Notes: a model not told the origin generated them from the letters alone. Shown: positions 3,422 through 42,900, numbered from the stretch's first letter. The stretch: DNA of 51,366 nt from Candidatus Zambryskiibacteriota bacterium (GCA_026394775.1 JAPLZY010000008.1:1-51366); one strand, 5' to 3'. Translations and numbers: made by a program.

Positions 3422-3911
3422 ATGCAAAATTTGTAATTCTGATTTTTACCCACGACCTTCCAATGTAAGGAATGGGTGGGGTATATACTGCTCCTTGGAT
3501 TGTAAATATATTGGTGCACAGGTCAAAACACAACTAAATTGCTCAGTGTGTGGAATAGTGGTTTTTAAAACGCAGACTCAGGTGAAGAGGTCAAAAAGTG
3601 GGGAGTATTTTTGTGGTAAGTTCTGTCAAACTAAATGGAGAAATGTAGAATTTAGTGGAGAAAAGCATGCAGGTTGGAAAGGTGGTGTTTCAACATATCG
3701 AGATATTTTGCTAGAAAACAAAAAAATACCCGAATGTGGTATCTGTAAAAGAAAAGACTTTAGAATTCTTGCTGTGCATCATGTCGATGAAAATCACGCA
3801 AATAATAATATAGAGAATTTGGTATGGCTTTGCCACAATTGCCATTACCTGGTACATCATGATAATGTAGAAAAGCAGAAGTTTTTAAGGTGGCGACCGA
3901 AGACTTCTTAG
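3408..3911 (+). CDS. HNH endonuclease with N-terminal zinc-ribbon repeats
   Basis: ILAVHHVDENHANNNIENLVWLCHNCHYLVHH is an HNH motif. Two CxxC...CxxxC modules lie upstream of it. The start overlaps the end of the broken paralog by 14 nt. Confidence 0.8.
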   Translation: MPSVKCKICNSDFYPRPSNVRNGWGIYCSLDCKYIGAQVKTQLNCSVCGIVVFKTQTQVKRSKSGEYFCGKFCQTKWRNVEFSGEKHAGWKGGVSTYRDILLENKKIPECGICKRKDFRILAVHHVDENHANNNIENLVWLCHNCHYLVHHDNVEKQKFLRWRPKTS

Positions 3912-10782: not shown

Positions 10783-11805
10783 ATGATTAATCGAAGTAAA
10801 GTTGAAATAATTTTCTTTTCAGTCTTGTTTGGGGCGGTACTCGTGCTCACTTTTTTTGTGTTTAAACCTTTTTTTACAACACTTTTTCTTGCGGCAACAT
10901 TTGCAATAGTGCTTTTTCCACTCTATCAATACATCCTTAAACTTTTTAAAGGGCGGGAAATTGTAAGTGTTCTCACAACTATTTTTATAGGCCTTGTGTT
11001 TGTCATACTTCCCGTTGTGTTTTTGGGACAAGAAGCTTTTGAGCAAGCGCGAAGTCTCTATGTAAAATTCTCTACAAACAATATTAGTGAATTTGACTAC
11101 GTGGCGCGTTTAATTGAAGAGCCAATTCAAAAATTTGTCCCGGATTTTTCTATCGATGTCGATCAGTATATTAGACTTTCTTTAGGTTGGGTAACAGATA
11201 ATTTTAAAGACGTCCTCTTCGGTACACTCACTGTCGTTGTTGACGTTTTTCTTATCATACTCGCACTTTTCTTTTTCCTTAAAGACGGAAAGAGGTTTGT
11301 TCAGAGGCTTACAGAGCTTTCACCGCTCCATGATGCATATGACAGAGAACTTTTGGAAAAAACAGCAAATACTATAACAACGGTTGTAAAAGGCACTCTC
11401 CTTATTGCGCTTGTACAGGGTGTTCTTGCGGGAATCGGACTTGCTATTTTTGGTGTGCCAAACGCGGTGTTGTGGGGAGCGCTCGCGGCTTTGTGTGCGT
11501 TTGTGCCGGGACTCGGTACTGCTATTGTTATTATTCCTTCCGTTATCTACCTTTTTGTTATTGGAAATATTCCATTTGCTATTGGGCTATCAGCGTGGGG
11601 GATGATATTGGTAGGTATGATCGACAATGTGCTTGGACCGTATCTCTATAAGCGCGGCACACGACTTCACTCGCTTGTTGTGCTGTTTGCAGTGCTCGGT
11701 GGTATCTCTTTCTTTGGACCAGAAGGTGTTCTTTTGGGGCCTGTCATTGCAAGTCTTTTTATTTCCCTGATTCATATTTACGAAAAAATGGTAATTGCAA
11801 AATAA
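10783..11805 (+). CDS. AI-2E family transporter (PerM/UPF0118)
   Basis: Polytopic membrane protein with FFFLKDGKRF and the C-terminal conserved region FVPGLGTAIV...IDNVLGP. Confidence 0.8.
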   Translation: MINRSKVEIIFFSVLFGAVLVLTFFVFKPFFTTLFLAATFAIVLFPLYQYILKLFKGREIVSVLTTIFIGLVFVILPVVFLGQEAFEQARSLYVKFSTNNISEFDYVARLIEEPIQKFVPDFSIDVDQYIRLSLGWVTDNFKDVLFGTLTVVVDVFLIILALFFFLKDGKRFVQRLTELSPLHDAYDRELLEKTANTITTVVKGTLLIALVQGVLAGIGLAIFGVPNAVLWGALAALCAFVPGLGTAIVIIPSVIYLFVIGNIPFAIGLSAWGMILVGMIDNVLGPYLYKRGTRLHSLVVLFAVLGGISFFGPEGVLLGPVIASLFISLIHIYEKMVIAK

Positions 11806-30973: not shown

Positions 30974-32362
30974 ATGGCAGAAAAAAACCAAGAACTGATG
31001 GAAAAGATTGTATCCCTCTGTAAAAGACGAGGGTTTGTTTTTCCTGGGTCTGAAATCTACGGAGGACTCGCCGGTACATTTGACTATGGACCGCTTGGTG
31101 TTGCGCTCCGCAACAATATAAAAGCGCTTTGGTGGAAACGCTTTGTAACTGACCGAGAAGACATGTACGGCATGGATGCCGCTATTTTGATGAATCAAAA
31201 TGCATGGAAAGCATCGGGACACGTGGGTGGTTTCAACGATCCACTTGTTGAAGATTTGAAAACTAAAAAAAGATATCGAGCAGATCATTTGCTTGAAGAT
31301 GTAGGAGTTGACGTAAAAGGCCTTACTGTGGGAGGTATGGATAGTTTGATAAAAGAAAAGGGAATCAAAAGTCCAGAAGGAAATCCGCTTGGTGATGTGC
31401 GTCAGTTTAATATGATGTTTAAAACTCACTTTGGTGCCACCGAAGGTGAGGACTCTATCACATATCTTCGTCCTGAAACGGCTGGAGGTATGTTTGTAAA
31501 CTTTAAAAATATTCAAGACTCATTTCATCCAAAACTTCCATTTGGTATGGCACAGATCGGTAAAGCGTTCCGCAATGAAATCGCACCTCGAGATTTTATT
31601 TTCCGTCTCCGTGAACTCGAACAAATGGAAATCGAATATTTTGTTGATCCAAGAGACCCAGTGAAAGTAGATCAAATATTCAACGAATGGTTTGATGAAC
31701 AAGTGGCCTTTTTGAAAGATCTTGGCCTTCCAGAATCAAAGATCCATAAACTCGAAGTTCCTGAAGCTGACCGAGCTCACTACTCAAAGAGAAGTGTTGA
31801 TACAGAGTTTGATTTTGCCATCGGTCAGAAAGAACTTCTTGGTCTGGCATATCGTACAGACTTTGATCTCAATGCGCACGCAAGTGCTTCTGGGGCTGAT
31901 CTTTCATACTATGACGAAGAAACAAAGGAGAGAGTAGTACCTCACTGCATCGAGCCTACATTTGGTGTGGACCGAGTATTGCTCGCAGTCCTCTCATCAG
32001 CATATACAGAAGATGAACTAGGGGGAGAGACACGAACATACCTAAAATTTGCTCCAAAGGTTGCTCCGGTAATAGTGGCAGTTTCTCCACTTTTGAAAAA
32101 CAAACCAGAGCTTGTATCTCTCGCACGAGAAGTGTTTGTGCAACTCAAGAAAAAATTTGGCCGCGTAAGCTTCGATGACAATGGAAATATTGGAAAGCGA
32201 TACCGAAGACAAGATGAGATAGGTACGAAATGGTGTGTAGTGATTGATTTCGATACACTCGAGCAAAAAACAGGAGTAACAGTACGTGACCGAGATACTG
32301 GAGAGCAAACACGCATGCAGGTCCCAGAACTCATTGCGTACATCGAAGAAAAGTTACAGTAA
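30974..32362 (+). CDS. glyQS: glycyl-tRNA synthetase (homodimeric class II type)
   Basis: MEKIVSLCKRRGFVFPGSEIYGGLAGTFDYGPLG, with class II motifs FRNEIAPRDFIFRLREL and a C-terminal anticodon-binding domain. ATG 30974 is preferred over the track start 30941. Confidence 0.95.
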   Translation: MAEKNQELMEKIVSLCKRRGFVFPGSEIYGGLAGTFDYGPLGVALRNNIKALWWKRFVTDREDMYGMDAAILMNQNAWKASGHVGGFNDPLVEDLKTKKRYRADHLLEDVGVDVKGLTVGGMDSLIKEKGIKSPEGNPLGDVRQFNMMFKTHFGATEGEDSITYLRPETAGGMFVNFKNIQDSFHPKLPFGMAQIGKAFRNEIAPRDFIFRLRELEQMEIEYFVDPRDPVKVDQIFNEWFDEQVAFLKDLGLPESKIHKLEVPEADRAHYSKRSVDTEFDFAIGQKELLGLAYRTDFDLNAHASASGADLSYYDEETKERVVPHCIEPTFGVDRVLLAVLSSAYTEDELGGETRTYLKFAPKVAPVIVAVSPLLKNKPELVSLAREVFVQLKKKFGRVSFDDNGNIGKRYRRQDEIGTKWCVVIDFDTLEQKTGVTVRDRDTGEQTRMQVPELIAYIEEKLQ

Positions 32363-32390
32363 ATTTTCAATTTTAAATATTCATAGAAAT

Positions 32391-33092
32391 ATGGAAAATG
32401 ATGAAGATGTGGAAAATAGAGCGAAGGAATTTATAAAGCAAAATAAATCCCACATTATACAAAAGTTTGCAAACAATGCATCTCATATACCTGTAGCAAA
32501 GCCCATTTCTCTCTTCATGGCAGGTTCGCCTGGAGCAGGGAAAACCGAAGTTTCAAGAAGTTTGATAAAAGAATTTGAAAGCATGCCTATACTTATTGAT
32601 GCTGATGAAATTAGAAAAGAATGCCCAGGTTACATTGGTATAAACGCGCATCTCTTTCAAAAAGCCGCAACAAAAGGAATAAGTATTTTATTGGATCACG
32701 CGCTTGATAATAAATTAAACTTTATTCTTGATGGTACGTTTGCATATGCAGATCCAGTTCAAAATATTCAAAGATCAATCGACCACGACAGGTTGGTTGA
32801 ATTATGGTTTATCTATCAAAGACCGGAGCTCGCTTGGGAATTTACAAAAGCTCGAGAAGTGATTGAATCAAGAAGAGTGGGTAAAGAAAAATTTATTGAA
32901 ACATTCTTGAAATCAAGAGACAATGCAATTCAAGCAAAAAGACACTTTGATAAAGTTCTAGAATTAAACTTGTTGATCAAAGATATCGATAATACAGGAG
33001 GAGAGCTCAGATTAAATATATCCGCCGACGAACTTGACCGGTATCTAGGGAATGGCTATACTGAAGATGAACTTAAAAATCTACTCAAATGA
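32391..33092 (+). CDS. zeta-toxin-family P-loop kinase
   Basis: FMAGSPGAGKTEVS (Walker A) followed by ILIDADEIRKECPGY and ILDGTFAY, which is the zeta_toxin family layout. ATG 32391 is preferred because the track start 32286 overlaps glyQS. Confidence 0.7.
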   Translation: MENDEDVENRAKEFIKQNKSHIIQKFANNASHIPVAKPISLFMAGSPGAGKTEVSRSLIKEFESMPILIDADEIRKECPGYIGINAHLFQKAATKGISILLDHALDNKLNFILDGTFAYADPVQNIQRSIDHDRLVELWFIYQRPELAWEFTKAREVIESRRVGKEKFIETFLKSRDNAIQAKRHFDKVLELNLLIKDIDNTGGELRLNISADELDRYLGNGYTEDELKNLLK

Positions 33093-33277
33093 TTACAACA
33101 TTAAAGAAGCTATTTACTCGAAAAAGCCCTGAAATTAAAGAAAAGAATGACTTTTCTGAGTTTTTTTTGCATGCCAAATCAAAAGATAAAGCTAAGGTAA
33201 TTCGACGAGTGCTTAAGGAAGCAAGTGATGAACAGAGGGCTTTAATGAAAAAATATAGAGAAGCAAAAACCGCCTAA
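33089..33277 (+). CDS. small Lys/Glu-rich helical protein, translationally coupled to the zeta-like gene
   Basis: The ATGA overlap at 33089-33092 couples it to the upstream stop. 62 aa with no recognised motif. Confidence 0.45.
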   Translation: MITTLKKLFTRKSPEIKEKNDFSEFFLHAKSKDKAKVIRRVLKEASDEQRALMKKYREAKTA

Positions 33278-33402
33278 TGGGGGGGTTTTGGTGCTAAGGC
33301 TTTGCCACGGCAGAAAGTGCCCTCAATAAGGGCTTTCTCTGCTGTGGCGAAAGCTAAATAAAAAACAGCATAAGGGCACGATGTGCCAAGGAGATGAAGA
33401 CG

Positions 33403-34044
33403 ATGTCTTCACTTTACACGATTGGACAGATGTATGAATTAGCGACCGCTTTTGAACAAGATGGTTATACGCCAGAAATGCTCAAGAGTCTTGTGTCAGG
33501 GGGTCGACTGCGAGCTCTCAAAGGAGTGCTCGAAGGGAACGCTCAGATTGTCACCACCTCAACCAGGGTGGCGCAAAAGAAGGTTGAACCGAAGAGTTTC
33601 ATCATCAAACGTGGCGATTTTAACCCTGCCGAATTTATTGGAACAGGCTGGAGCATCATCATGAAGGAGACAGACGCGCGTTCCACTGCTCTTATTGAAC
33701 TGGATCTGAACAAGATCCAACAGGTTACGATGTTGAAAGAAGGCGAGTTGTCCATCAAAGGTGAAGAGAAACTCAAACGTCTGAAGGAGTCGGAAAACAT
33801 CCGTTTGGATGCCGATATCTTCCTTGCACTCTGGAGGAACCAATATCTCATCCCTGAAAGCTGGAAGCAAAAGGTGGACGGGAATACTCGCTACATTTTC
33901 TTTGACGGCACAGTCCTTCGGGACTCAGTCGGCTACCGCTATGTCCTGTACTTGTGCTGGTTCGGCGGTGCGTGGTACTGGCGCGTGCGCTGGCTCGACC
34001 TTGTCTGGGGCGCCGACGGCCCGTCTGCTGTTCTCGTAAGTTAG
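33403..34044 (+). CDS. DGR target (variable) protein with C-terminal variable region
   Basis: The C-terminus GYRYVLYLCWFGGAWYWRVRWLDLVWGADGPSAVLVS is encoded by the VR. The AAGGAG at 33388-33393 is correctly spaced for ATG 33403. The track start 33394 abuts the SD. Confidence 0.85.
   Translation: MSSLYTIGQMYELATAFEQDGYTPEMLKSLVSGGRLRALKGVLEGNAQIVTTSTRVAQKKVEPKSFIIKRGDFNPAEFIGTGWSIIMKETDARSTALIELDLNKIQQVTMLKEGELSIKGEEKLKRLKESENIRLDADIFLALWRNQYLIPESWKQKVDGNTRYIFFDGTVLRDSVGYRYVLYLCWFGGAWYWRVRWLDLVWGADGPSAVLVS
33914..34036 (+). repeat. DGR variable repeat (VR)
   Basis: 123 bp aligned base by base to 34374-34496 at a constant offset of 460. There are 22 mismatches, and every one lies opposite a TR adenine. 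Confidence 0.9.
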
Positions 34045-34094
34045 TACTTGGGCTTTGGTCACTTGGATCTTTTGATCCTTGGATTTTAGCTCTT

Positions 34095-34121
34095 AATCCG
34101 GCGCCTTGGCGCCGGATTTTT
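34095..34121 (+). terminator. GC-rich hairpin/terminator downstream of VR
   Basis: AATCCGGCGCC-tt-GGCGCCGGATT (11-bp perfect stem) followed by TTT. Confidence 0.65.
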
Positions 34122-34278
34122 CTATACAAAAAATTAAGATATACTGAAGGGTGGTTGTAGGTGAATATCGGTACACATTTACGGATGGGTGCCACCGAAT
34201 CCAGTATCCATGCATTGAGAATATTTTAGACTACGGTTTCAAATAGAGTGGTGCATGTAGACACTTCAAAAAATGAAG

Positions 34279-34307
34279 TTACTTGGTATAAAGTGTTACG
34301 GTATTAT
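34279..34307 (+). promoter_or_regulatory. candidate promoter for the TR transcript (TTACTT-N17-TATTAT)
   Basis: Same -10 hexamer and spacing as the secE and rplK promoters. It lies about 65 nt upstream of the TR. Confidence 0.3.
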
Positions 34308-34373
34308 GATACCGAATAAAATACAGTCTCAAAATTTTTCAAGGGACAGTGGTACAGAAAGCACTTTATACAT

Positions 34374-34496
34374 TCCTTCGGAACTCAGACGACAACCGCT
34401 ATGTCCTGTACTTGTACTGGAACGACGGTGCGTGGAACTGGAACGTGAACTGGCTCGACAATGACTGGAACGCCAACAACCCATCTGCTGTTCTCG
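34374..34496 (+). repeat. DGR template repeat (TR)
   Basis: Adenine-rich with AAC codons. It is the invariant partner of the VR. Track ORF 34349..34591 across it is not considered coding. Confidence 0.9.
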
Positions 34497-34523
34497 CAAC
34501 TCGCTTAATTTCTCTCCCAACTT

Positions 34524-34853
34524 TCAGTTCGGAGAGTTTTGTTTTACAAGCTGGCCATACCAGCCACCAAGCTGTTTTCCTGCTTCGGTGAGAGGTTCTG
34601 AAAGTGCAATATATTTTTTCGTATCAAGGGCTTTGATTTCCCAGAGCATATAGAGGAGGAATTTTGCAGTATCGAGTGAGATGATGGCTTTTTTCACAAA
34701 TGGCTGTTTCTCCTGTTTTTCAAGAAAACTTGCAACGAGGATACTTTCAATAGCTTGAATGAAGTATTTATCTATTGTTTGAGCTAAAGTGTAACGGGAA
34801 GTTTTGGGGAATGTGGAGGTATAGCTTTGCCAGAGTATGTAGACACTTTTCAT
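34524..34853 (-). CDS. avd: DGR accessory variability determinant (Avd; four-helix-bundle / 23S-IVS-protein family)
   Basis: SVYILWQSYTSTFPKTSRYTLAQTIDKYFIQAIESIL...LDTAKFLLYMLWEIKALDTKKY..L...L.EAGKQLGGW matches the Avd/IVS four-helix-bundle pattern. ATG at 34853; the track start 34862 is a TTG. Confidence 0.8.
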   Translation of the reverse strand: MKSVYILWQSYTSTFPKTSRYTLAQTIDKYFIQAIESILVASFLEKQEKQPFVKKAIISLDTAKFLLYMLWEIKALDTKKYIALSEPLTEAGKQLGGWYGQLVKQNSPN

Positions 34854-34878
34854 TTTTTCCAATACAGGGAGCAGTTTC

Positions 34879-34887
34879 GGGGGGGGG
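34879..34887. repeat. G9 homopolymer in the avd/RT divergent promoter region
   Basis: Counted directly: the GG at the end of gcagtttcGG followed by GGGGGGG before cat. Confidence 0.9.
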
Positions 34888-34931
34888 CATGTTGTGAGGG
34901 GAATTTTGTGTCATAATTTCACTATTGTATC

Positions 34932-35918
34932 ATGTTGCCTAACAAAATTTCTTTTGAAGAAATAATTTCTGTTGAAAATCTTCTTTCTGCCTGGAAGGAA
35001 TTTTTAGTGGGCAAAAAGAATAGAAAGGATGTGCAAGAATTTCAGTTGCGTATGATGGATAGTGTTTTGTTACTCCATAGCGATCTAAAAAATAAGACAT
35101 ATGTTCATGGAGGCTACCAAGCATTCTCTATTAATGATCCGAAGCCTCGGAATATCCACAAAGCATTTGTAGGAGACCGTCTGTTGCATCATGCTTTGTA
35201 TCGAGTGTTATATCCGTATTTTGATAAGAAATTTATACATGACTCATATTCGTGCAGGGTAAGGAAAGGAACCCACAAAGCACTTGATCGTTTTAATACT
35301 TTTGCGAGAAAAGTGTCAAAAAATAACACACAAACCTGCTGGGTGCTCAAATGTGATGTGAGAAAGTTTTTTGCTTCGATTGACCAGGTTGTATTGCTTG
35401 AGATATTAAGAAAGCATATTGATGATACCGACACTTTGTGGCTACTGGAAAGACTGGTAGAAAGCTTTGACTCAGGAAAACAAGGGGTTGGATTGCCACT
35501 CGGTAATTTAACTTCTCAGCTTCTCGTAAATATTTATATGAATGAGTTTGATCAGTACATGAAGCATATTATTAAAGAAAAGTATTACATTCGATATGCT
35601 GATGATTTTGTTATCTTGAATGCTGACAAAAAGCATCTTGAAAAACTTACTGTATCCATATCTGATTTTTTGAATGAGAAACTAAAGTTGACACTGCATC
35701 CGAATAAAGTGTTTATTAAAACGTTTGCTTCAGGGGTTGATTTTCTAGGGTGGATTCATTTTCCATATCGTCGAATAATACGCACCGTAACGAAAAAGAG
35801 AATGTTTAAAAAACTTTCTGTTCCTGACCCAAAAAAAGAAACTATTGATTCGTATAAAGGTCTGCTCGGGTGGGGAAATGCGTATGAATTGATACAAAAA
35901 ATAGATAAAATATCATAA
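34932..35918 (+). CDS. DGR-type reverse transcriptase
   Basis: RT motifs: NIHKAFVGDRLLHHAL, SYSCRVRKGTH, LKCDVRKFFASID, GLPLGNLTSQLLVNIYMNEFD (the DGR-typical GNLTSQ) and IRYADDFVI (YxDD). Confidence 0.9.
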   Translation: MLPNKISFEEIISVENLLSAWKEFLVGKKNRKDVQEFQLRMMDSVLLLHSDLKNKTYVHGGYQAFSINDPKPRNIHKAFVGDRLLHHALYRVLYPYFDKKFIHDSYSCRVRKGTHKALDRFNTFARKVSKNNTQTCWVLKCDVRKFFASIDQVVLLEILRKHIDDTDTLWLLERLVESFDSGKQGVGLPLGNLTSQLLVNIYMNEFDQYMKHIIKEKYYIRYADDFVILNADKKHLEKLTVSISDFLNEKLKLTLHPNKVFIKTFASGVDFLGWIHFPYRRIIRTVTKKRMFKKLSVPDPKKETIDSYKGLLGWGNAYELIQKIDKIS

Positions 35919-41281: not shown

Positions 41282-41734
41282 ATGTATCTAAACCAAGCAA
41301 TCGTCATAGGTAACCTCACTCGTGATCCAGAGTTTAAGGCATTGCCGTCTGGTATTACAGTGACCAGTTTCTCTGTAGCGACAAACCGAGTATGGAAAGA
41401 TAAAAATGGTGCAAAGCAAGAGAGTGCCGACTATCACAACATTGTATTGTTTGGACGTCAGGCGGAGATTGCAAACCAGTATTTGAAAAAAGGAGCTTCA
41501 GTGTTGATAGAAGGAAGAATGCAGACACGAAGTTGGGACGATGCTGGAGGTAAGAAAAACTACCGAACAGAAATCATCGCCGATCGAATGCAGTTTGGTC
41601 CACGGACTGGAGGAGCACCAATGCCACAGTCAGGTCCCTCAGCCTCGCAGGCAGCACCAGAGCAGGGTTCAAAGGCTCTTGATACGATAGAGTATCCGGA
41701 AGAAGAAATTAACCCTGAAGACATCCCATTTTAG
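41282..41734 (+). CDS. ssb: single-stranded DNA-binding protein
   Basis: NQAIVIGNLTRDPE OB-fold start, and an acidic tail ending DIPF. Confidence 0.95.
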   Translation: MYLNQAIVIGNLTRDPEFKALPSGITVTSFSVATNRVWKDKNGAKQESADYHNIVLFGRQAEIANQYLKKGASVLIEGRMQTRSWDDAGGKKNYRTEIIADRMQFGPRTGGAPMPQSGPSASQAAPEQGSKALDTIEYPEEEINPEDIPF

Positions 41735-41737
41735 TTA

Positions 41738-41847
41738 AACATACGAATATGCGAATGTACGAATGATGCAAATGGTTACGAATAAAAAACCAAAGACATT
41801 CATTCGGAGACATTCGTAGATTCGGATTATTAGTTAATTCGTATATT
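41738..41847. repeat. TACGAA/TTCGTA-rich palindromic intercistronic element, copy 5 (full length)
   Basis: AACATACGAATATGCGAATGTACGAATGATGCAAATGGTTACGAAT ... ATTCGTAGATTCGGATTATTAGTTAATTCGTATATT. Closest relative of copy 1. Fills the ssb-rpsR gap. Confidence 0.7.
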
Positions 41848-41853
41848 TATTTC

Positions 41854-42051
41854 ATGAAGTGTTACTTTACTCAAAACAACATAGTGCATATTGACTACAA
41901 AGATGTAGATTTGCTCAAGAAATTCCTCAACCCGCATGCGCGAATGATTTCACGTAAGCGAACAGGTACCACTGCAAAAAACCAGCGAAACCTTGCCGAG
42001 GCTATAAAGCGGGCGAGAGTGATGGGACTACTTCCTTTCGTTTCTAGATAA
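41854..42051 (+). CDS. rpsR: 30S ribosomal protein S18
   Basis: [43 protein letters not shown] is the canonical S18 sequence pattern. Confidence 0.95.
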
Positions 42052-42184
42052 AAGAACTTTGGTCTTTTTCACCAATCTCATCGGCTAAAATCTGAAAATG
42101 GTCCTCAACATACGACATGTATGTCTCCGGTCCCTTCCCAGATTTTATCCGCGACCTCGGTAAAAAATCCCCAAAGCTCTAATT

Positions 42185-42206
42185 AAAAACCCCTTACAGG
42201 GTTTTT
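42185..42206. terminator. bidirectional terminator between rpsR (+) and efp (-)
   Basis: AAAAACCC-cttaca-GGGTTTTT, with A/T runs on both sides. Confidence 0.6.
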
Positions 42207-42213
42207 ATTTTAC

Positions 42214-42792
42214 CTAGAAACTATTTCCAACACGTTCTGAGTACTCTCCAGTATCAGTATTGATACGAATGATCTCTCCTTCTTTAATAAACATCGGTAC
42301 AAAGACAGTAGCACCTGTTTCTACAGTCACGCTCTTTGTGGCTCCCTGAGCTGTATTTCCTTTGGTTGCATCCTGTGCCTCTGTTACCTTAAGCTCTACT
42401 TTTACGGGCATTTTGACACCAATAATCTTTTCCTTGAACAAGAGAAGGGAAATGATAGCATTTGTTTTCATAAACTTTGCTCCAATACCAATCATTTCTT
42501 CTTCAATCTTAAACCGCTTTGAAGGGTCGTTGATTTCACAAAACCAAAATTCACCTTTGTTTGCAAAGAGAAATTTTACGTCTTTTTTGTCAATCTCTGC
42601 TTCTTCTACCTTTTCAGATACATGGAAAGACTGTTCAGTCATTTTGCCTGAAATGAGGTTTTTAAGCTTGGTTGCATTGACCGGTTTTCGCTGTTGTTTT
42701 CGAAACACATGCGAGTCAATAACCTCGTAGGGAGTACCATCGAGGACAATAAATTTTCGTTCTACGATTTCGTTGTATTCAAGCATTGCCAT
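42214..42792 (-). CDS. efp: elongation factor P
   Basis: FIVLDGTPYEVIDSHVFRKQQRKPVNATKLKNLISGK and the C-terminal ETGATVFVPMFI. Confidence 0.95.
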   Translation of the reverse strand: MAMLEYNEIVERKFIVLDGTPYEVIDSHVFRKQQRKPVNATKLKNLISGKMTEQSFHVSEKVEEAEIDKKDVKFLFANKGEFWFCEINDPSKRFKIEEEMIGIGAKFMKTNAIISLLLFKEKIIGVKMPVKVELKVTEAQDATKGNTAQGATKSVTVETGATVFVPMFIKEGEIIRINTDTGEYSERVGNSF

Positions 42793-42868
42793 ATAAAGTG
42801 TATGTATTTAAAGTATAACAGACTGTATAACCTTGCGATTATAGCGTATTTTAGGCTTCAAGGAAAGT

Positions 42869-42900
42869 AAAAAGCCTTATCTGTACAGATAAGGCTTTTT
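42869..42900. terminator. palindromic terminator downstream of recA
   Basis: AAAAAGCCTTATCTG-ta-CAGATAAGGCTTTTT is a perfect stem with symmetric A/T runs. Confidence 0.75.

Follow-up and report, generated by a model that had tools for sequence, protein, structure and literature searches.

To our knowledge, all biochemical and structural knowledge of reverse transcription in diversity-generating retroelements (DGRs) comes from one phage element, in which the essential RNA lies 3' of the template. In the DGR of the Bordetella phage BPP-1, the template repeat (TR) must be flanked by 20 nt of upstream and 140 nt of downstream RNA for cDNA synthesis, the downstream part being the spacer RNA, Sp (Handa et al.). 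Nucleotides 53-56 of Sp pair with TR 118-121, and priming takes place from the 2'-OH of A56; two nucleotides on, Sp 59-70 and the segment immediately preceding TR form the stop duplex, and the stop strand is followed by a short stem-loop, adenosines, the thumb ring and a stem that binds the phage reverse transcriptase (RT), bRT (Handa et al.). A stem-loop binding the accessory protein Avd stands immediately 3' of TR, and the survey of other DGRs in the same work was limited to 40 nt before TR and 100 nt after it (Handa et al.). The closest described systems to the element considered here are the cellular DGRs of Patescibacteria, or the candidate phyla radiation (CPR). Patescibacteria belong to the groups with a significant enrichment of DGRs (Roux et al. 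2021, PMC8144416), and architecture B3, TR-(avd)-RT with avd reversed, makes up 90% of the CPR set (Wu et al. 2018, PMC5758913).

Our analysis concerned a stretch of 51,366 nt from Candidatus Zambryskiibacteriota bacterium (GCA_026394775.1 JAPLZY010000008.1:1-51366), called here the window. Its positions 33394-35918 very probably hold a complete chromosomal DGR of the Patescibacteria (CPR) clade, with the TR-(avd)-RT layout, that works in the way proposed below. The DGR itself is one more example of a well-documented class, a typical member of the known CPR clade, which agrees with the first-pass annotation of this DNA, where the class was called established and not novel. The new part is a conserved leader RNA directly 5' of TR, a structured RNA that the account of the element given in that annotation had overlooked. 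The order in the window is target(+)-TR(+)-avd(-)-RT(+), with the following features, in which VR is the variable repeat and IMH the site of initiation of mutagenic homing:

33394-34044, + strand: gene for the target, or variable protein; the first ATG opens a frame of 216 aa, later starts being 33403 (213 aa) and 33430 (204 aa)
33914-34036, + strand: VR, an ungapped match to TR with mismatches confined to TR adenines
34024-34044, + strand: IMH-like VR end, TCTGCTGTTCTCG common to TR, then TAAGTTAG including the stop codon, against CAACTCGC in TR
34045-34094, strand not assigned: segment downstream of VR, conserved in sequence in 24-26 cassettes, a candidate target-recognition element
34095-34123, + strand: intrinsic terminator of the target gene from a terminator scan, with a 10-bp GC-rich stem, the loop TTGG and a T-run
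34139-34144, + strand: -10-like box TATACT, candidate promoter of the leader-TR RNA
34151-34371, + strand: structured leader RNA of ~220 nt, supported by covariation, directly 5' of TR
34153-34202, + strand: leader domain P1, covarying fold
34209-34257, + strand: leader domain P2, covarying fold
34271-34279, + strand: AAAUGAAGU in the A-rich linker of the leader
34286-34297 and 34360-34371, + strand: closing helix of leader domain P3, enclosing two small hairpins
34374-34496, + strand: TR, with 9 AAC, 1 AAT, 5 GAC and 3 TAY codons
34497-34511, + strand: IMH*-like CAACTC, then GCTTAATTT (34503-34511; consensus NCTTCATTT), a candidate primer-binding site
34512-34545, + strand: 3' hairpin with a covarying stem (CTCTCC 34512-34517, GGAGAG 34531-34536) and the U-run TTTTGTTTT (34537-34545)
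34524-34862, - strand: avd, which runs towards TR and away from RT; 112 aa with a TTG start or 109 aa with the ATG at 34853
34932-35918, + strand: DGR reverse transcriptase, 328 aa, with LGNLTSQ (L190-Q196), YADD (D224, D225) and D142

The cassette and its relation to described DGRs

TR and VR align without gaps at an offset of 460, and the programmatic alignment gives exactly the 22 differences in 123 bp reported in the first-pass annotation. As claimed there, every one of them falls at a TR adenine, with none of the 93 non-adenine sites changed. Altogether 22 of the 30 TR adenines are altered in the VR (hypergeometric P = 5.1e-18), as 12 A>G, 7 A>T and 3 A>C, and all but one of the 22 changes (21) occupy codon position 1 or 2 of the target open reading frame (ORF). 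The same pair was recovered by an independent repeat finder, and the peptides quoted in the annotation are correct. The TR can vary 18 codons, giving about 3.8e16 protein variants, and no substitution of its adenines can reach a stop codon; the end of the VR lies 8 nt from the stop codon of the target. The remote VRs that had been proposed for a search were not found in the 51-kb window, where, with TR adenines masked, neither strand holds a second VR for this TR.

Relatives were collected by scanning one genome per species, which gave 79 loci with the target family, mostly in metagenome-assembled genomes (MAGs) of Patescibacteria. About 30 of the 79 have the full cassette in the target(+)-TR(+)-avd(-)-RT(+) arrangement, and in 26 cassettes the spacing is tight (VR to TR, 300-440 nt; TR to avd stop, about 28 nt; avd start to RT start, usually 55-110 nt). 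When these 26 are pooled, 447 of the 478 TR/VR mismatches stand at TR adenines. At about 50 of the 79 loci the family member has no RT within 4 kb, and at least 10 of these still have the leader. A single contig (CAZDPS010000001.1) carries two of the loci, L009 and L016, the latter encoding another family member some 9 kb away from the cassette of L009; its VR matches the L009 TR at 85 of 87 non-adenine positions and differs at 14 of 30 adenine positions, and it is thus a remote second target.

Beyond the GC-rich segment TCTGCTGTTCTCG, which TR and VR share, the two copies part ways, and the pattern CTCGCAAG-TTAG in VR against CTCGCAAC-TC in TR is kept in 24 cassettes. By analogy with BPP-1 this VR end may serve as a putative IMH. 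The earlier description of the end of homology, as TR CAAC against VR TAAG, is right as it stands, but the C/T difference that it includes (34497/34037) is lineage-specific: only the window and the related locus L005 share it, the other relatives having CTCGCAAG in VR and CTCGCAAC in TR. The conserved segment downstream of VR contains a short inverted repeat in the window (34065-34078); RNAalifold gave no consensus hairpin downstream of VR across 24 cassettes. Only about 34% of DGRs have a GC-rich inverted repeat downstream of IMH (Wu et al. 2018, PMC5758913).

The GNLTSQ and YADD motifs noted earlier in the RT were both confirmed, the former as LGNLTSQ. The motif [I/V/L]GxxxSQ is the signature of DGR RTs, and group II RTs have QGxxxSP (PMC7826257). 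The best match in the Protein Data Bank (PDB) is chain A of 8ub7 (E = 2.7e-41), by its description the Bordetella phage DGR ribonucleoprotein, with a numbering that fits the bRT residues of Handa et al.; group II, retron-type and other RT classes match at 1e-18 or weaker. Compared with Brt of the BPP-1 genome record, the protein is 30% identical end to end (E = 4e-49), both being 328 aa long. The bRT residues K29, F66, R74, I76, D138, I181, G182, Q187, D215 and D216 correspond to K28, F65, R73, I75, D142, L190, G191, Q196, D224 and D225, so the catalytic aspartates and the fingertip residues of bRT are preserved. Two of the bRT residues, R74 and I181, promote adenine mutagenesis (PMC7826257); their counterparts here are R73 and L190. 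Pfam gives a generic RVT_1 match only, and all NCBIfam matches are below cut-off (group II, 138 vs 300 bits; retron St85, 64 vs 235; Drt3a, 76 vs 200). No group II intron or retron RNA family was found in the Rfam scans of the window. The classification that had been asked of this RT thus places it by far closest to the bRT of BPP-1 among PDB structures, and not with group II or retron enzymes, which supports, at the level of sequence comparison, its assignment as a DGR-type RT.

The Avd-like gene said to complete the element is supported as to its identity, but its position on the minus strand had been overlooked. We dropped the notion that the reversed avd is an anomaly, B3 being the layout reported for most CPR DGRs (Wu et al. 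2018, PMC5758913). All database homologues of the protein carry PF22296 and are named 'four helix bundle protein' at NCBI; pairwise and profile likeness to the Avd of BPP-1 is limited to the last helix. The AlphaFold2 (AF2) model built on the homologues has four helices (pLDDT 91.8), and Foldseek aligned it with BPP-1 Avd 4dwl and with the Avd chains of 8ub7 (TM 0.81-0.85, probability 1.00). Because the model superposes on BPP-1 Avd, the prediction that the minus-strand ORF encodes Avd may be taken as settled.

The adenine-specific TR/VR pair, the DGR-type RT, the Avd and the IMH/IMH*-like divergence are all present, as expected of the complete DGR that the first-pass annotation had recognized. 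Its further statement that DGRs are abundant in CPR genomes, for which it cited Paul et al. 2017, is consistent with Wu et al. 2018 (PMC5758913) and Roux et al. 2021 (PMC8144416). Measured against the described Patescibacteria/CPR elements (B3, PMC5758913; RT clade 2, PMC8144416), the window element has the same order and a reversed avd, and is likewise cellular and chromosomal; its target, as theirs, is small, without signal peptide, transmembrane (TM) segment or known domain, and its VR cannot be assigned by sequence to the classic C-type-lectin classes. In gene content we see no difference from them. With BPP-1 (mtd-avd-TR-brt) it shares the adenine-specific transfer from TR to VR, an AAC-rich TR without risk of stop codons, the RT length of 328 aa at 30% identity with its catalytic and adenine-mutagenesis residues, an Avd of the four-helix-bundle type, and the IMH/IMH*-like way in which TR and VR part at their ends. 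The BPP-1 element, however, belongs to a phage, has its genes all on the same strand and diversifies the tip of a tail fibre, and the target of the window element has no detectable relation to Mtd. Moreover, the essential RNA of BPP-1 (Sp, about 140 nt) lies 3' of TR, whereas the window element has its large structured domain 5' of TR and, with avd inverted, only a hairpin and a U-run after it.

The leader RNA and the 3' flank of TR

About 330 nt lie between VR and TR, and the ~220 nt nearest TR are conserved as nucleotides though the cassette proteins are only 50-65% identical. In the alignment of 24 cassettes this leader forms three domains with 55 pairs, 39 of which show double compensatory changes. 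Standard pairs fill 97.5% of the cells, against 34-53% when the partners are slid by one to three columns, and the covariation was reached by none of 500 shuffles. Because many conserved G-U pairs take part, the fold is specific to the + strand, the strand of the template adenines. The P3 helix ends 2 nt before the TR/VR homology, and the corresponding gap is -2 to +4 nt in all 24 cassettes. The covariance model of the leader, R1, scores 231 bits at 34151-34376, its sole copy in the window, and has no match on BPP-1. On its 5' side, a TAnAAT-like hexamer ends 4-5 nt ahead of the start of the leader model in 51 of 79 leaders, and a hairpin and T-run equivalent to the target-gene terminator follow the target in relatives.

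A scan of the metagenome collection with a 17-nt motif returned more than 120 loci, 80 of them listed, in which the leader was checked with R1. Among the matches listed, a full-length leader was confirmed at about 58 loci at least, and of the 34 with enough flanking sequence, 27 have avd(-) and 26 have RT(+) after it at fixed distances; in the same list the target family of the window precedes the leader at only 12 of 37 loci, and a TR like that of the window occurs at only 2 of 55 leader loci. The leader belongs to the cassette and not to a particular target. The same motif scan of IMG/VR gave 11 matches, 10 due to chance and one real. The real leader, in contig L090 (IMGVR_UViG_3300042876_001093, 10828-11054, 213 bits), is followed by avd(-) and RT(+); L090 is either a Patescibacteria phage carrying this type of DGR or a cellular contig that was classed as viral.

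The leader, its promoter and its terminator are not mentioned in the CPR DGR papers PMC5758913 and PMC8144416 (Paul et al. 2017 being left aside), and the leader is not in Rfam 15. At the gathering threshold, Rfam found only tRNAs and one group I intron in the window and 18 relatives; at a permissive threshold it gave only RT-16, at half its cut-off, and noise, and none of 38 related loci reached the thresholds of the Rfam RT motifs. The full RT-16 (RF03019) model can be aligned with the leader's 3' half (34264-34380) at 25 bits, the gathering threshold being 50. Both have a hairpin with an A-rich loop followed by a long closing helix round inner hairpins, with the single-stranded AUAAAAUACAG and the AAG..GGU motifs in common; unlike RT-16, the leader has the additional domains P1 and P2, which lack a counterpart there, and its score is below the threshold. 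On this sequence-level likeness a distant kinship of the two is possible. As presented in the main text of Weinberg et al. 2017 (PMC5737381), the motifs RT-1 to RT-19 are structured RNAs near bacterial RT genes, RT-10 being the Sp of BPP-1, and other RT motifs are speculated to serve other DGRs; that main text gives no function or DGR link for RT-16.

Lineage-specific insertions of 25-80 nt occur in leader loops of L018, L021, L024, L028, L029 and L047, at the P1 loop, the P2 loop, the A-rich linker and the P3a loop (A2 columns 38-62, 119-199, 233-279 and 319-344). Some of them are hairpins, and L024, L029 and L047 have a similar CAGTAGGT..CTGAAT insert. The sites of insertion agree with solvent-exposed loops.

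On the 3' side of TR the order CTCGCAAC-TC-NCTTCATTT, covarying hairpin, TTTTGTTTT is conserved. The U-run overlaps the last avd codons on the opposite strand, where the amino acids KQN are encoded as AAA-CAA-AAC in 20 of 21 avd genes against 0.15 expected, though AAC is a minority Asn codon (binomial P about 7e-16, uncorrected for shared ancestry). Because the codon choice for KQN is nearly fixed, the U-run appears to be constrained as nucleic acid. The hairpin and U-run are possibly a terminator and, by analogy, maybe also the counterpart of the Avd-binding stem-loop of BPP-1. In L024 the KQN region of avd contains an in-frame stop, and the U-run there reads TTTTATTTT.

The leader sequence AAAUGAAGU and the consensus ACUUCAUUU found after TR are reverse complements and can form a 9-bp duplex. 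Across the 24 cassettes 92.6% of its positions are paired, against 42-64% when slid, two positions show double changes, and none of 500 shuffles did as well. In most of 51 further loci with unrelated TRs, the NCTTCATTT motif stands 100-139 nt past the leader. In an all-against-all search of the full RNA for covarying long-range helices, only this duplex of the leader with the 3' flank survived; apparent long-range pairings to the U-run were set aside as G-U/A-U promiscuity, and a local hairpin ACUUC/GAAGU was rejected, since shuffles did as well.

Proposed mechanism and alternative explanations

We propose that a + strand RNA of about 395 nt would be transcribed from its own promoter (-10 box at 34139-34144) and would comprise the leader, TR and a short tail, presumably ending in the hairpin and U-run (34512-34545) that overlap the end of avd. 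RT and Avd would copy TR into cDNA, misincorporating opposite template adenines, and the cDNA would take the place of the VR (33914-34036) at the target gene's 3' end, where up to 18 codons could be rewritten (about 4e16 variants) with the scaffold left untouched. By analogy with BPP-1, the leader would be the platform that binds RT and Avd, its strand AAAUGAAG (34271-34278) would pair with CUUCAUUU (34504-34511) 3' of TR and prime cDNA synthesis, and the P3 helix abutting TR would halt it. The order of elements in the leader, namely AAAUGAAG-N (34271-34279), six nucleotides, the P3 strand, a small hairpin and an A-rich single strand, parallels Sp 53-81 of BPP-1, but precedes TR here. This likeness suggests that the leader may be the counterpart of the BPP-1 spacer RNA moved 5' of TR, giving a circularly permuted DGR RNA generic to Patescibacteria DGRs, an idea that we hold tentatively and rate a little short of probable. 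In such a permuted RNA, TR would be looped out between the stop helix at its 5' edge and the primer duplex past its 3' edge.

Several observations weigh against this account, some against the element as a functioning DGR and others against the part given to the leader. The profile hidden Markov model scores of Avd (NCBIfam DivGenRetAVD, E = 6.5e-14; Pfam bAvd, E = 6e-8) are both under the curated cut-offs, and the target fold has no significant match (Foldseek against PDB and BFVD, none with E below 0.4). Four independent assemblies, from several runs, show no VR turnover (0 differences over up to 7 kb), and no VR variant was found within the 90% protein cluster. At 34037 the VR has a C>T change, not at an adenine; it falls in the GC-rich IMH-like segment, which in relatives is the same as in TR, and it could weaken homing. 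The roles of the leader are assigned by analogy. Most of the primer duplex does not vary; leaders with a final C lose its terminal pair, and in the window 8 of its 9 positions pair, an internal one being a G-A mismatch. The weak alignment to RT-16 speaks for placing the primer strand in a local hairpin.

Taken together, the points on VR and IMH might indicate a fossil or dormant DGR, whose adenine-specific divergence records past activity and whose target is no longer diversified in this organism, and decayed cassettes do occur among the relatives: RT fragments lie beside intact-looking targets and TRs in L020/L021, L037, L075 and L080, and avd is interrupted in L024. The VRs of L020 and L021, where the RT is only a fragment, are identical to each other, unlike those of active relatives. 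In the window cassette, on the other hand, RT, Avd, TR, leader and 3' hairpin are all intact, with a leader that scores as high as that of any relative (231 bits), and the lack of variants among the assemblies has to be read with the fact that consensus assemblies cannot reveal minority VR alleles. Between the window and L005, whose TRs agree at 125 of 130 positions, the VR is different at 15 of 30 shared A-sites and at none of the 95 shared non-A sites. L005 carries the same C>T change and its VR nevertheless differs at A-sites, so homing appears to have continued past that change, and comparison of the sequences indicates that the window lineage or its sister L005 has rewritten the VR since their split. 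In L008 and L011, which have the same TR and upstream gene, 19 of 31 A-sites of the VR are different and all 95 non-A sites the same; because the VRs of close relatives differ at A-sites alone, the clade of the window element appears to be active on short time scales. The description of the element as apparently active therefore finds indirect backing in its relatives, but no VR turnover in the four assemblies, and we consider dormancy distinctly improbable.

A different doubt concerns the leader, which might be a regulatory or stabilising 5' element, riboswitch-like or protein-binding, with priming left to RNA past the hairpin, antisense to avd. This would agree with BPP-1, where all such elements are 3' of TR, with the report that CPR DGRs, too, have putative Avd-binding stem-loops right after TR (Handa et al.), with the limited covariation of the primer duplex and with the RT-16-like alignment, in which the GAAG strand pairs locally. 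Yet only about 45 nt lie between the end of TR and the U-run in the window's clade, the U-run is nucleotide-constrained, the sequence past it is accounted for by avd coding, and no covarying helix joins the leader or TR to that region; furthermore, the leader is tied to the cassette and not to the target, and its closing helix stands exactly at the 5' edge of the template, all of which makes the regulatory role unlikely, if still to be reckoned with. We give virtually no credence to the idea that the RT belongs to some other retroelement (group II intron, retron or defence RT) and that the repeats are a duplication diverged by chance. The generic RVT_1 match and the weak sub-threshold group II, retron and Drt matches are what speaks for it, against a VR in which all 22 differences stand at adenines (P = 5e-18), a bRT that is closest in the structure database by 23 orders of magnitude, the presence of LGxxxSQ and not QGxxxSP, the lack of an intron or retron RNA family, and the adjacent Avd; it is refuted by the adenine specificity, the bRT match and Avd. 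Our preference thus remains with a complete, working DGR of the CPR clade.

Target family, genomic setting and significance

The target protein described earlier as 213 aa long results from the start at 33403, but the longest ORF begins at 33394 and encodes 216 aa; gene callers also used the 204-aa start. Its N-terminal ~65 aa are variable and poorly modelled, and the C-terminal ~150 aa are conserved and end in the VR. One search put the family at 294 or more clusters (90% identity), and an exhaustive one at 2,903 representative clusters (50% identity); its named sources are nearly all Patescibacteria. In the family alignment the scaffold R-YVL-L-W--G-W-W---WL---W----PSAVLAS is kept, and the hypervariable columns between coincide exactly with the codons templated by TR adenines. 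Pfam, NCBIfam, PDB sequence and PDB profile searches with the target gave no significant match, nor did Pfam with 58 family members. The earlier statement that the protein lacks a signal peptide or TM segment was borne out (KD19 maximum 0.76, N-terminus not hydrophobic, no TM-like segment), and the targets of Patescibacteria clade-2 DGRs are likewise without either (Roux et al. 2021, PMC8144416).

The AF2 model of residues 68-216 (pLDDT about 97) predicts a strand, two helices, then four or five VR-bearing strands. The top fold matches, none significant (probability 0.23 or less), are the C-type lectin variants Bd2740 (8oks), BDCA2 and rhodocetin; the two best Foldseek matches are Bd2740, and more lectin domains stand further down the list. 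Alignment of the target with Mtd by hhalign was negative. The C-type-lectin-like fold expected at the outset thus has in its favour a confident model with lectin-like order, but no significant structural match, and we lean weakly towards a lectin-like fold. Like the C-type-lectin variable proteins Mtd, TvpA and archaeal AvpA, the target has its VR at the extreme C-terminus and conserved aromatic and glycine scaffold residues alternating with the variable positions; unlike them, it has no secretion signal and no significant sequence, profile or fold match. Two fusions that end in the VR domain were seen in the family: P0231 (651 aa) has an N-terminal AAA_5 (MoxR/midasin-type) ATPase, and P0250 (367 aa) has a weak MopE-like metal-binding motif. 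The AAA_5 fusion suggests an intracellular role, that is, that the target family acts inside the cell, and the target itself is apparently a small cytoplasmic protein.

The neighbours of the element in the window are housekeeping genes (glycyl- and methionyl-tRNA synthetases, an M16 peptidase and an AI-2E permease), which places it on the chromosome; the closest relative is flanked by the same downstream neighbours. Directly upstream of the target, in the 32286-33277 region, lies a gene for a Zeta_toxin-family P-loop kinase (E = 3.6e-31), whose stop codon is overlapped by an ORF of 62 aa (33089-33277) with no family match; the two could be a toxin-antitoxin-like module. The pair is present in the identical assemblies, and no zeta-toxin gene was called in the short upstream stretch of L005 and L006. 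Long ORFs from 300 to 41734 are almost all on the + strand and from 42214 on they are on the - strand; the cumulative GC skew climbs to about 42 kb, then flattens or falls, and this strand switch, at about 41700-42900, is possibly a replication landmark. Upstream of the DGR cassette of L047 there is a group I intron match at the Rfam threshold (2433-2642, - strand, 55.2 bits), some 1 kb away from a tRNA gene (3601-3675). Contigs with the target or cassette also occur in non-CPR MAGs: L008 (Nitrospira sp. by title), L034, L035 and L052 (Gammaproteobacteria), L054 (Hanamia) and L067 (Syntrophobacteraceae). L008 and L011, from different MAGs, are identical in TR and in 300 nt upstream of VR, and these placements look like binning errors rather than horizontal transfer.

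The target family, with about 2,900 representative clusters, no secretion signal and one fusion with an AAA+ ATPase, bears on the question of CPR DGRs diversifying intracellular proteins. The covariance model of the leader finds cassettes of this kind independently of their proteins, and leader, TR and tail together make a defined, mutable construct of about 395 nt for the question of how cDNA synthesis is primed and stopped in these DGRs. Because avd is inverted right after TR, the arrangement of BPP-1 is impossible for Patescibacteria DGRs, and the leader may explain how DGRs of the Patescibacteria type start copying.

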